NCBI GenBank assembly: GCA_963597005.1
Contig: CAVBOS010000001.1
Span: 1 to 51,136, forward strand
Length of the DNA: 51,136 bases
DNA from: Lachnospiraceae bacterium
Lineage (GTDB): Bacteria > Bacillota > Clostridia > Oscillospirales > Acutalibacteraceae
Direction of reading: 5' to 3'
Shown: positions 2,292 to 8,593 of the stretch, one piece after another
Layout: each line of letters starts with the position of its first letter
Numbering within the stretch: position 1 is the first letter of the stretch
Notes under the pieces: generated by a model
The model's input: only the letters and a program-made list of their open reading frames with translations
What the model was told of the DNA's origin: nothing
Databases searched by the model: none
Position numbers and translations under genes: made by a program

Positions 2292-2325
2292 TGTCCGTTA
2301 TTTGTCCCGCACGCTTTCATATAAT
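2292..2325 (+). promoter_or_regulatory. P1: TGTCC-N6-TGTCC-N12-TATAAT promoter (micropeptide regulon)
   Basis: TGTCC at 2292-2296 and 2303-2307 (11-bp period). TATAAT at 2320-2325 lies exactly 12 nt after the second repeat. GTAATCACAAC leader follows. No TTGACA-like -35 at the 17-bp position. Confidence 0.6.
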
Positions 2326-2374
2326 GTAATCACAACAAAGGAAAACACAAAAACAAATCTAAGGAGAAACAAAA

Positions 2375-2461
2375 ATGACAACACTTGCAACAATACTCGC
2401 ATTACTTTCAATAATCGGAGTGGCACTTGAAATTCACGATTTCACAGCACAGAGAGGATAA
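2375..2461 (+). CDS. micropeptide A1, 28 aa, hydrophobic: MTTLATILALLSIIGVALEIHDFTAQRG
   Basis: AAGGAG SD 8 nt upstream of the ATG. It is the first ORF after P1 and has a single TM-like helix. Confidence 0.5.
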   Translation: MTTLATILALLSIIGVALEIHDFTAQRG

Positions 2462-2464
2462 AAT

Positions 2465-2554
2465 ATGAAAGACTTCTGCAAAAGACTAAAGGGTAAGCTT
2501 AAAAGAGCAATGGAATATTACGATGAAATGTATTCCTACCAAGAGATGATTTAA
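2465..2554 (+). CDS. micropeptide A2, 29 aa: MKDFCKRLKGKLKRAMEYYDEMYSYQEMI
   Basis: GAGGA SD 6 nt upstream. It shares the basic N-terminus plus [DE]-[GY]-Y-x-x-[MI]-Y motif with A3-A6. Confidence 0.55.
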   Translation: MKDFCKRLKGKLKRAMEYYDEMYSYQEMI

Positions 2555-2565
2555 AGAAAAAAGCT

Positions 2566-2599
2566 TGTCCCTAAATTGTCCTATAGGACACGATATAAT
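2566..2599 (+). promoter_or_regulatory. P2: TGTCC-N6-TGTCC-N12-TATAAT promoter
   Basis: TGTCC at 2566-2570 and 2577-2581, TATAAT at 2594-2599, then AAAATCACAAAAACAAAACAAC leader. Confidence 0.6.
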
Positions 2600-2652
2600 A
2601 AAATCACAAAAACAAAACAACAAAAACAACAAAGAAAAACAGGAGATTAAAA

Positions 2653-2742
2653 ATGAACATCTTGAAAAGAGCAGTCGAAGCAATAAAGAGAGATTTAAGA
2701 AACGCATCCGACGGTTACATCGAAATGTACGCTTACAACTAA
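2653..2742 (+). CDS. micropeptide A3, 29 aa: MNILKRAVEAIKRDLRNASDGYIEMYAYN
   Basis: GGAGA SD 6 nt upstream. Family motif D20-G-Y-x-E-M-Y. Confidence 0.6.
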   Translation: MNILKRAVEAIKRDLRNASDGYIEMYAYN

Positions 2743-6747: not shown

Positions 6748-6814
6748 TATAATTCTTTTCCTCCTTATCCTGATTTTGCACAACTAAAATACATTTAATA
6801 TATTTAAATATTTA

Positions 6815-7477
6815 TTACATAAGCTCCTTGAAATCTTCGATGAAAGTGTCGCTGATTTCCTTAAGCTTTTCCTGTTCATCCTTATCGTGGCAGTCGTCTT
6901 TCATAATGATGAGCTTGAATCCCGCTTTCTTCGCAGTCGATGCGGCGTAGTAAGCATCCTCAACAACTACGGCTTTGTCTATGGAAATTCCGAAATGCTC
7001 AAGGCAGTCGAGATAAACATCGGGGTGCTCCTTGCTTTTTCCGACCGTTGCGCAAGAGGCTGAGTACTCGATAAATTCGAGAAGTCCCAGTTTTTCAAGA
7101 CAAGGCTCAAGAGCACTGATGTCGGATGCCGTGGCAAGGGCAATGTGCTTGCCGTTATCACGAAGGTATTTAAGAAAGGCCCGTGCACTCTTCTTTTCCG
7201 GTACTCTTGTAACATAACCCTCAGCTGCAAAATCTGTAATTTCCTGTGCGACCGATTCGGGCGTGCCCGATGCTCCCAAACGGTTCACGTAGTAATCGGC
7301 ACACTGAAGAAGACTCAGATTATTCATGATTTGAGCAAGTCCCTCGGGTGCGTCTATTCCTTTATAACGGGCAAAATCATAGGTGAGATTTCCCCACATC
7401 GGCATGGAATCCACCAAGGTTCCGTCACAATCAAATATAAAAAGATCAATATTATTTACATCAATAGATTTTTCCAT
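6815..7477 (-). CDS. HAD-IA family hydrolase (phosphatase / beta-phosphoglucomutase-like)
   Basis: Motif I FIFDCDGTLVDS near the N-terminus, later ALATAS and VVVEDAYYAASTAKKAGF (motifs II-IV). 220 aa. Confidence 0.8.
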   Translation of the reverse strand: MEKSIDVNNIDLFIFDCDGTLVDSMPMWGNLTYDFARYKGIDAPEGLAQIMNNLSLLQCADYYVNRLGASGTPESVAQEITDFAAEGYVTRVPEKKSARAFLKYLRDNGKHIALATASDISALEPCLEKLGLLEFIEYSASCATVGKSKEHPDVYLDCLEHFGISIDKAVVVEDAYYAASTAKKAGFKLIIMKDDCHDKDEQEKLKEISDTFIEDFKELM

Positions 7478-7552
7478 TTCATATACCCCCTGAAATCAGC
7501 GTTGCGAAATTAATTCTATCATATGATATATTCTTTTTCAATCGGGAAAGGC

Positions 7553-7593
7553 AAGAGAAAAGCAGTCAATAGGCGGTTGACTGCTTTTCTCTT
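7553..7593 (-). terminator. 17-bp perfect hairpin immediately downstream of the 7596 CDS
   Basis: AAGAGAAAAGCAGTCAA / TTGACTGCTTTTCTCTT with a 7-nt loop. The T-tract is only modest on either strand. Confidence 0.55.
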
Positions 7594-7595
7594 TA

Positions 7596-8444
7596 TTATT
7601 CAAGTGACTTAAGTAAATCTATTGATTTTTTCATATCATCAAAAATATCACCGCTTATCGGCATATCCTGATCGATGATAACGGGGAACTTTCCGTCTTC
7701 GTTAACAGAGAGGCAAGCTTTCACATTTGTTCTGCCCTCACCCAAAACGGCAAACATTTTCGGTATACCGAGTTCGTCAAAATTCTCGTGAAGATCCTTG
7801 AAGTGAATGCATCTGAGAACGGGGAGATATTTTCTCATGAAATCCTCGGGCTCGATACCGCCCGGCATAACCCAACCTGTATCAACCTGAGCGAAAACGC
7901 CCTCGCTCTTTTTGAGAAGATATTCGTAGACGAAAACATCTTCGCTGTCAAGCTCGATTTTTTTGCGGAAATCGCCTCCGCTGTTGTGAAGCCAAAGCTC
8001 CACGCCGACGCTTTTCAGCTCTTTTGCCACTTCACTCAGAGTTTCTGCAAAGGAAACGGGATTGTCAATCGCCTCTTGCGGTGTGTTGATAACATATGCT
8101 TTAATTCCGACTTTCTCGGCAAGAGCTTTTAGTCTCGGCATGATTTTCTGATAGTCTGAGCCGAAAATGTGAGCGGAGAGAATCTCAAGTCCGTATTTTT
8201 TCATCATTTCGACATAGTGGGGAGCTGTTTCGTAAGTCCAGAGTAAATCGGGAAGAGCAGCGGCGGCTTGGTTTCCGCTTTCGAGTGCTTTTCTTTTAAA
8301 TTCCTCTGCGTCATCAAAAATAATGCACGGCTCGATAATTGAGTAGCCGTATTCGCTCATGGTTTTAAAGAAATAATCGGGATCCTTTTTGAAATCAGCC
8401 GAGCAGCCGAACATTTGAAGACCGTATTTAATGTCATTTTTCAT
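7596..8444 (-). CDS. sugar phosphate isomerase/epimerase (xylose-isomerase-like TIM barrel)
   Basis: 282 aa with family-like segments (YGYSIIEPC, ELWLHNSGGDF, IHFKDL, VIIDQD). The call is at family level only. Confidence 0.6.
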   Translation of the reverse strand: MKNDIKYGLQMFGCSADFKKDPDYFFKTMSEYGYSIIEPCIIFDDAEEFKRKALESGNQAAAALPDLLWTYETAPHYVEMMKKYGLEILSAHIFGSDYQKIMPRLKALAEKVGIKAYVINTPQEAIDNPVSFAETLSEVAKELKSVGVELWLHNSGGDFRKKIELDSEDVFVYEYLLKKSEGVFAQVDTGWVMPGGIEPEDFMRKYLPVLRCIHFKDLHENFDELGIPKMFAVLGEGRTNVKACLSVNEDGKFPVIIDQDMPISGDIFDDMKKSIDLLKSLE

Positions 8445-8559
8445 TGTGAAATCCGCCTTTCATGCGTATGGTATCGTTGCCATATCTACAAGTGAAATTA
8501 TATAATAACGAAGAACAAAAGTCAATTTGAATATTTGAATTAAAAAAGGACAAAATATC

Positions 8560-8593
8560 TGTCCGTGGTTTGTCCCTCTTAACCGATTATAAT
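8560..8593 (+). promoter_or_regulatory. P6: TGTCC-N6-TGTCC-N12-TATAAT promoter
   Basis: TGTCC at 8560-8564 and 8571-8575, TATAAT at 8588-8593, then a 70-nt A+C-only leader (AAAAACAAACACAAAACAAACACCAAACAAAACAAACAG). Confidence 0.55.

Follow-up and report, generated by a model that had tools for sequence, protein, structure and literature searches.

A putative promoter module with paired TGTCC boxes in place of the -35 element precedes micro-gene operons in a metagenome-derived clade of Oscillospirales

The 51,136-nucleotide (nt) stretch analyzed here, hereafter the window, comes from a Lachnospiraceae bacterium of the Acutalibacteraceae lineage (assembly GCA_963597005.1, contig CAVBOS010000001.1, positions 1 to 51,136 of the forward strand) and contains a recurrent arrangement, TGTCC-N6-TGTCC-N12-TAnAAT, in front of very small open reading frames (ORFs). 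This arrangement, which had been proposed in a first-pass annotation, is exact at all seven places, six on the plus strand (2292, 2566, 3285, 3973, 4268 and 8560) and one on the minus strand (47433..47400), and the sites stand at the start of operons of genuine micro-genes in several parts of the chromosome, as was suggested. With moderate confidence, we interpret the module as the core of an activator-dependent sigma-A promoter without a -35 element, in which the two TGTCC pentamers (box 1 and box 2) are bound head-to-tail by a regulatory protein; the class of the activator, the start site and the choice of activation over repression are predictions from the sequence.

The full motif was not found in any of 100 dinucleotide-preserving shuffles of the window, compared with seven real copies. 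The pentamer pair without the -10 requirement returned the same seven window sites against 0.03 expected, and tolerance of one mismatch added no further site where 1.75 were expected; thus the window sites are either perfect or absent. Lone TGTCC pentamers are not over-represented (69 observed versus ~72 expected), and the signal therefore resides in the paired, spaced arrangement. The 11-base-pair (bp) period of the two pentamers is kept at 7 of 7 window sites, and the reported lack of a -35 element also holds, as the hexamer at the 17-nt position matches 2-3 of the 6 bases of TTGACA at each of them. All seven sites are intergenic and have the same orientation as a small ORF with a Shine-Dalgarno site. 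The sites at 3973 and 4268 go back to a single promoter, copied in tandem as part of a duplicated 295-bp segment (96% identity at offset 295), and hence the window contains six independent sites. The G+C content of the window is 44%, and its Shine-Dalgarno sites are strong.

A stricter pattern that includes the conserved bases after the -10 hexamer was run on a species-representative genome collection and returned 20 loci, every one of them in five related metagenome-assembled genomes. The clade counts given below cover the window and these loci, 190 kb in total. This DNA contains 46 distinct box pairs, all with the 11-bp period; as two of them merely add a further upstream pair to a triple box, 44 promoters remain. 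A -10-like hexamer is located exactly 12 nt past box 2 in 44 out of 44 promoters, which bears out the proposed gap; the hexamer itself is more variable than proposed, being TAnAAT in 39 promoters and TATACT or TATTAT in the others, and TAAAAT is also seen in relatives. When only box 2 and the hexamer were required, 49 sites were found, 45 of which have a perfect box 1 and two of which are genuine exceptions that are off by 1-2 bases; thus both boxes are constrained independently of the way the sites were discovered. In alignments of orthologous promoters, the boxes, the -10 hexamer and the first 15-25 transcribed bases are invariant, whereas the spacer bases have diverged; no indels occur within the core, whereas the leaders are rich in them. 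Matches to a relaxed pattern (118 metagenome and 24 viral) belong mostly to unrelated or chance families, for example TGTCCTTTACATGTCCTTTA beside DnaA-box-like sequences, and were not used as clade evidence.

The lineage, a member of the Clostridia whose chromosomal DNA makes up the window, is known from metagenomes only and can be very abundant, with contig coverage up to ~280x. Its ribosomal protein S9 falls into a cluster of at least 90% identity with Faecalispora sporosphaeroides, Caproiciproducens and Acutalibacteraceae/Oscillospiraceae entries. Records of the five related metagenome-assembled genomes carry the names Prevotella, Bacteroides uniformis or Bacteroidaceae; the sequences themselves are those of Clostridia/Oscillospirales, and the titles are apparently wrong.

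The module as first described is real but incomplete, since inverted and triple boxes, the A-tract, the TG, the CA start and the A/C-rich leader had been overlooked. At most sites, box 1 is preceded by an A-tract at a distance of 4-9 nt, and gcT is favoured directly 5' of this box. The inter-box spacer is AT-rich, its positions 6-10 being T, A/T, A, A/T and T, with A or T at position 9 in 39 out of 39 cases. A TG dinucleotide stands one base 5' of the -10 hexamer in about two thirds of the sites, and a CA is conserved 6-7 nt past the hexamer. Some promoters carry third boxes, either inverted, as in modules 2, 3 and 6 of the window (Table 1) and their orthologues, or arranged as direct triples, as in L001 and L010, where the orthologues of module 6 have three direct boxes. 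The inverted box of module 2 is kept in orthologues even though its 4-nt spacer varies. The sites come after the terminators of upstream genes and before ribosome-binding sites. Their leaders (e.g., 2332-2374, 2606-2652 and 8600-8666) consist of ~65% A and ~20% C with almost no G or U, resemble (ARN)n repeats and are essentially unstructured (minimum free energy 0 to -2.1 kcal/mol); the median distance from the -10 hexamer to the first ATG is 53 nt, with a Shine-Dalgarno site before the ATG. In one subclass of leaders, the sequence CACAACAAAGG(A/C)AA at +1..+16 is common to non-orthologous promoters and could be an Hfq-type or 5'-stabiliser element. The leaders of the TGTCC modules matched no Rfam family in a scan of the window.

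The micro-ORFs behind these promoters are real genes, as judged from 12 orthologous pairs with 101 synonymous and 78 non-synonymous differences, which correspond to pS (synonymous) of 0.457, pN (non-synonymous) of 0.085 and a pN/pS ratio of 0.19. The coding status of MAALVITP... and MFMTLQ... (Table 1) is less secure, as they had no same-length orthologue in this test. Six peptides encoded at 2465-3274 constitute one family of paralogues in which D/E-x-Y comes after a basic amphipathic N-terminus. Ten micro-proteins had no match in Pfam and NCBIfam, and a profile search with the above paralogous (MNILKR) family against 5.8 billion proteins and 1.84 billion representatives retrieved clade members only. 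The micro-genes at 47043-47346 were skipped by the gene callers in 9 out of 10 assemblies. Another family, encoded at 4050-4127, 4345-4422 and 3755-3832 and in L003, L010, L015 and L001, combines a hydrophobic N-terminus that varies with a C-terminal (A/V)EIPE(P/T)YLC that is conserved; its layout recalls precursors of short hydrophobic signalling peptides, and no Rgg-type or other receptor gene was seen near these peptide genes.

A walk downstream of the clade promoters yielded ~55 product families, a number that also includes some conventional genes, probably transcribed separately; 43 of the families have at most 60 residues, and 24 contain a membrane-helix-like hydrophobic stretch. A small ORF follows 7 out of 7 sites in the window, but the proposal that only micro-ORFs are driven from these sites does not hold in its relatives. 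The larger targets include a 212-residue membrane protein, two arrays of ~165-residue secreted paralogues (L002), a ~420-residue protein (L020) and, in the more distant contig L030, a 569-residue secreted protein preceded by the same A/C leader. The related statement that no pair precedes a conventional gene in the window may have to be relaxed as well, since the gene at 8667..8813, driven from the 8560 site, is followed by a 712-residue surface-protein gene (9012-11150) with no canonical terminator between them; read-through into the latter may occur, and the pairing of the two genes is kept in L003 and L010. A second micro-ORF island (25094-26788, plus strand) consists of nine tandem paralogues of 42-56 residues, each with its own ribosome-binding site and sharing a C-terminal ...YVN(A/V)GGx(I/V)T. 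It is driven by a perfect TTGACA-N17-TATAAT promoter (24984-25012) without TGTCC boxes, and 50-residue relatives of its genes are found within TGTCC-driven operons of L012, L014 and L016. Since this island has an ordinary promoter, micro-ORF arrays appear to be a general habit of the genome, with the TGTCC module as one driver.

The mechanism that we favour would operate as follows. The TAnAAT hexamer, mostly preceded by TG, would be the -10 element read by the housekeeping (sigma-A type) RNA polymerase, and transcription would start at the A of the invariant CA, 6-7 nt past the hexamer. The boxes would then occupy about -40..-36 and -29..-25 on one helix face, in place of a -35 hexamer, and the A-tract at about -49..-44 would resemble an UP element. 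Promoters of the housekeeping sigma factor likewise feature a TG-preceded hexamer, an A-tract and a CA start. A trans-acting protein, presumably encoded elsewhere in the genome, would bind the box pair head-to-tail, reach the third direct or inverted box at some promoters, and recruit or position RNA polymerase in the manner of class II OmpR/PhoB/SARP winged-helix activators at Pho boxes. The spacing is rigid whereas the leaders tolerate indels, which suggests that the bound protein must touch RNA polymerase and argues for activation over simple occlusion. The unstructured A/C leader and the strong ribosome-binding sites would suit efficient translation of polycistronic arrays of lineage-specific proteins of 20-60 residues; among the product families, about 40% carry a segment resembling a membrane helix. 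The OmpR/PhoB-type geometry indicated in the first-pass annotation is thus retained in its direct repeats, AT-rich spacer and fixed distance at the -35 position; a regulator to go with it was not found in the window, in 264 kb of related DNA or adjacent to any site.

Several observations weigh against this interpretation. No two-component system or transcription factor was detected beside the sites by a Pfam search of 30 window and locus proteins, and tblastn of PhoB, SpoIIID, the L089 regulator described below and a phage 149-residue protein against 264 kb of clade DNA gave no hit. Autoregulation would place a site before the operon of the regulator, but no regulator gene follows any of the 44 promoters in the fraction of each genome that is visible. 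The start site, and promoter activity itself, are deduced from sequence patterns, and the start-region conservation (AATCACA) was partly imposed by the stricter search pattern. Descent from duplicated cassettes could account for part of the shared spacing, although the complete divergence of the spacers speaks against this. Finally, a promoter with an extended -10 element (in about two thirds of the sites) and an A-tract may be active on its own, and the boxes could then be an operator.

In that alternative, the promoters are self-sufficient and a repressor silences the micro-genes until a signal removes it, which we regard as unlikely. Besides the TG and the A-tract upstream of box 1, the inverted box at -20..-16 within the spacer of modules 2 and 3 and their orthologues has a typical repressor position, and in Bacillus subtilis the genes whose SpoIIID sites overlap the RNA polymerase binding region are repressed (PMC517825). 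The operators of known global repressors, however, vary in position, whereas here the distance is fixed in 44 out of 44 promoters while the leaders tolerate indels; moreover, the TG is missing from 3 of the 7 window sites.

The sole regulator seen in the Pfam search is encoded by a PucR-type gene of L019, which is located on the opposite strand ~1.2 kb past a site. Upstream of the window no regulator was found, just the XpaC and TelA genes and, a few kb away past these genes, a further micro-ORF island (L174, 1-420). Circumstantial support for recognition of such boxes by a winged-helix protein comes from the unrelated low-GC contig L089, in which TGTCCCAT-N3-TGTCCCAT-N9-TAGAAT is located 62 bp after a response-regulator gene; the alignments of this regulator to the RprY and PhoB models extend into their DNA-binding domains, and a LytS-type kinase gene adjoins it. 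Literature on TGTCC or TTGTCC in connection with a response regulator, sigma factor or late promoter provided the BldC and SpoIIID leads only.

Micro-proteins such as SpoVM take part in sporulation, and the second of these leads implies a SpoIIID-like small helix-turn-helix binder whose regulon would be a set of small proteins for sporulation (in the mother cell) or a similar developmental process. The core GGACAAGC of the ideal B. subtilis SpoIIID site TAGGACAAGC (PMC11180830) is matched exactly by the reverse complement of box 1 and its flank (GCTTGTCC), in agreement with the consensus WWRRACAR-Y, and box 2, (A/T)(A/T)TTGTCC, reads GGACAA(A/T)(A/T) on the other strand. The occurrence of boxes in both orientations and in variable number is as expected for a monomer binder, and SpoIIID sites of B. 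subtilis likewise have either orientation. The lineage, which is related to spore-formers, belongs to Clostridia/Oscillospirales, with its S9 in a 90%-identity cluster with F. sporosphaeroides. We nevertheless consider this model quite improbable. The -10 element is of the sigma-A-like TG-n-TAnAAT type, and where the sigma-E/sigma-K motif CATA has its C, the base is G in 26 out of 39 sites and C in 5 out of 39. Neither box fits the sigma-E/sigma-K geometries, which involve an 8-nt -35 element with a 12-bp gap or a 5-nt one with a 15-bp gap (PMC517825). The SpoIIID sites of B. subtilis serve sigma-E/sigma-K promoters without a fixed 11-bp tandem. Their overlap with the promoter goes with repression, and positively controlled genes generally lack promoter-overlapping sites (PMC517825); the Clostridioides difficile consensus is KRTAACARK, not GGACA (PMC5025042). 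No spoIIID gene was detected by tblastn in the 264 kb of clade DNA, and an 8-mer match picked from among many known sites can be a coincidence.

An alternative sigma factor, or a sigma-like and possibly phage-derived transcription factor, has also been considered as the reader of the boxes, as initially envisaged for this regulon, and is to be viewed as very unlikely. The bipartite spacing is rigid, and low-GC phage contigs hold TGTCCGTTCAATGTCCG-N11-TAAAAT-ggTATCA exactly between a gene for a ~149-residue protein and a tRNA/terminase block, a classical position of a late promoter; the ~149-residue phage gene weakly matches sigma-70 region 4 and a PHROG transcriptional regulator. On the other hand, the 12-nt distance between box 2 and the hexamer fits no sigma family known to us, the TG-preceded -10 element is of the housekeeping type, and the variable number and orientation of boxes are traits of transcription-factor sites, which indicates a DNA-binding protein rather than a sigma factor. 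A homologue of the phage protein is absent by tblastn from the 264 kb of clade DNA, none of the clade sites is on a viral contig, and the phage matches were picked by the search pattern and could be convergent.

Two further assignments were rejected. Reading TTGTCC as a -35 element with a 17-nt spacer to an overlapping TnnAAT fails because the essential A at position 2 is missing in the TGTAAT and TGAAAT copies; at the 8560-type sites it fails as well, the hexamer being TTTAGA or TTTAGT. The spacing and sequence do not fit sigma-D, sigma-E, sigma-K or sigma-54. As an observation in its own right, ten phage contigs (L040, L066, L114, L140, L141, L144, L148, L152, L154 and L157) share TGTCCGTTC(A/G)ATGTCCG-N11-TAAAAT-ggTA(T/G)CA followed by hairpins and a terminator; this module is probably a late promoter with a short leader RNA. 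A blastn search of the motif-bearing phage locus against annotated phages gave no match.

That the copies are a mobile or repetitive extragenic palindromic (REP)-like repeat without a role in transcription is hardly credible, although contigs of several assemblies break near the islands and one promoter-plus-gene unit is tandemly duplicated. The copies share ~75 bp only, from the A-tract to the start of the leader, with unrelated flanks and downstream genes; they lack terminal inverted repeats and target duplications, every copy is oriented toward a ribosome-binding site and an ORF, and orthologous positions are kept across species. In this respect, the first-pass annotation was right to treat the arrangement as a promoter signature.

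The activator model can be compared with several characterized systems. In Escherichia coli, the Pho box is separated from the -10 element by 10 bp. A PHO box consists of two 11-nt head-to-tail direct-repeat units with the core CTGTCAT (PMC4415409). The TGTCC modules likewise have 11-bp direct repeats with a conserved core, here (c)TGTCC(c/g), and an AT-rich spacer, placed instead of a -35 element at a fixed short distance from the -10 hexamer; they differ in that the core ends in CC rather than CA, in the extra inverted boxes and in their targets, which are mostly micro-genes. The 270 bp that precede the alkaline phosphatase gene (48887-50491) contain no TGTCC pair, and thus the TGTCC boxes do not serve as the Pho box here. 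In Streptococcus pneumoniae, CiaR acts at TTTAAG-N5-TTTAAG repeats ~10 bp upstream of the -10 element, and its promoters drive five small csRNAs. There, too, a response-regulator direct repeat replaces the -35 element and heads scattered, very small, highly expressed units; however, the CiaR products are non-coding RNAs, in contrast to the translated micro-ORFs found here, and the repeat sequence is different.

AgrA of Staphylococcus aureus belongs to the LytTR proteins and recognizes 9-bp repeats, ~21 bp apart, that are located 5' of the -35 element; it directly drives tandem arrays of phenol-soluble modulins, amphipathic or hydrophobic peptides of 20-45 residues that annotation long missed. 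The likeness lies in a single regulator, here a presumed one, tandem arrays of tiny peptides and a ribosome-binding site for each peptide. LytTR sites of AgrA and ComE are described as 9-bp direct repeats ~12 bp apart upstream of the -35 element (PMC6193735), a layout that differs from the 11-bp period and the overlap with the -35 position seen here. No quorum-sensing genes were seen near the TGTCC sites. For the Streptomyces regulator BldC, TGTCC direct repeats are present in the optimised whiI site TGTCCGAATTGTCCGAATTG, and repeats in variable number are bound head-to-tail (PMC5859096); however, its period is 9 bp instead of 11 bp, the AATTxxxx(C) unit does not fit, and the host is an actinobacterium.

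Tandem boxes replacing the -35 element are a known architecture (Pho-box, CiaR and SARP-type), and no new principle of transcription is required. What is new is the specific box, the lineage-restricted regulon and the many unannotated protein families; the mechanism being textbook, the value lies in the regulon and its products. Annotation systematically misses small proteins, and a 34-bp, nearly all-or-none cis-signature offers a direct means of enumerating a co-regulated set of them in an abundant uncultured Clostridia lineage; it could also help to fish for the regulator and to ask which condition switches on the whole micro-proteome. More speculatively, one box-binding factor, either an orphan winged-helix protein or a domesticated phage late-gene activator, could serve a largely hidden micro-proteome of more than 40 families of 20-60 residues, many of them membrane-inserting or amphipathic, from ~20-30 co-induced promoters per genome (a rough extrapolation from the visible DNA), with the A/C (ARN)n-like leader providing a second, Hfq-type post-transcriptional layer; we hold this broader scenario to be possible but doubtful. 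If it were true, peptide-based warfare, signalling or envelope remodelling could be the function, with a logic like that of agr and the phenol-soluble modulins.

The TGTCC modules of the window and the genes assigned to them are listed in Table 1.

Table 1. Promoter modules, micro-genes and associated hairpins in the window (aa, amino acids)
Feature	Position	Strand	Description
Promoter module 1	2292..2325	+	Box 1 at 2292-2296, box 2 at 2303-2307, -10 TATAAT at 2320-2325; predicted start at the A of CA (2331-2332); right behind the terminator of the MATE gene (2219-2254)
Module 1 micro-gene MTTLATILALLSIIGVALEIHDFTAQRG	2375-2461	+	28 aa, hydrophobic; Shine-Dalgarno site; orthologue pN/pS 0.087/0.312
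Module 1 micro-gene MKDFCKRLK...	2465-2554	+	29 aa; Shine-Dalgarno site; orthologue pN/pS 0.040/0.857
Promoter module 2	2566..2599	+	Third, inverted box GGACA at 2586-2590, between box 2 and -10
Module 2 micro-genes	2653-2742, 2774-2863, 2876-2998, 3045-3155, 3182-3274	+	Tandem, 29-40 aa; paralogous family
Promoter module 3	3285..3318	+	Inverted third box at 3305-3309
Module 3 micro-gene MRDNFG...	3389-3481	+	Second copy
Module 3 micro-gene MAALVITP...	3620-3712	+	
Module 3 micro-gene MFMTLQ...AEIPEPYLCIR	3755-3832	+	
Promoter module 4	3973..4006	+	Extended -10 TGATACAAT
Module 4 micro-gene MPNILAIIFGAPMLAEIPEPYLCIR	4050-4127	+	25 aa; C-terminal AEIPEPYLC conserved across species
Promoter module 5	4268..4301	+	Copy of module 4 through the 295-bp tandem duplication
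Module 5 micro-gene MPNILAIIFGTTMLAEIPEPYLCIR	4345-4422	+	25 aa; duplicate of 4050-4127
GC-rich hairpin	5081..5121		U/A tracts on both flanks; read from sequence; likely a bidirectional terminator closing the micro-ORF island
Promoter module 6	8548..8593	+	Extra inverted GGACA at 8548-8552, 7 nt upstream of box 1
Module 6 gene MTINTVTATFIGISIV...	8667..8813	+	48-aa single-pass membrane protein
Promoter module 7	47400..47433	-	Extended -10 TGATAGAAT; after the terminator hairpin of the YibE/F gene (~47534-47508)
Module 7 micro-gene MKGFFD...	47263-47346	-	27 aa
Module 7 micro-gene MTELFD...	47163-47249	-	28 aa
Module 7 micro-gene MSNNSK...	47043-47123	-	26 aa
Terminator hairpin	~47029-46999		Downstream of the module 7 micro-genes

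Other features of the window include a T-box (RF00230, 95 bits) at 21237-21449 (plus strand), which precedes ileS (21519-24710) and was the sole match of the Rfam scan; no tRNAs were found in the window. Within the island there are recurrent mini-ORFs of two or three codons with strong ribosome-binding sites, namely ML-stop at 3563-3571, 3938-3946 and 4233-4241 and MTL-stop at 3876-3887 and 4171-4182, which may be decayed micro-genes or start-stop elements. The 295-bp tandem duplication spans 3835-4430 and comprises an entire promoter-plus-micro-gene unit; since it is missing from strain L173, the micro-gene cassettes are evidently still turning over. Contigs from independent assemblies (L173, position 1) begin at the first base of the window, within the XpaC-like gene, and repeated micro-gene cassettes may be breaking the assemblies. 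In L165 and L172 (3046-4432, minus strand), a gene for a large serine recombinase of 556 residues with Resolvase, Recombinase, Zn_ribbon_recom and DUF4368 domains is located directly after rpsI, in the region that corresponds to ~46990-47560 of the window; this position, which in other strains is occupied by the three-micro-gene operon and the YibE/F gene, is probably an insertion site of a mobile element.

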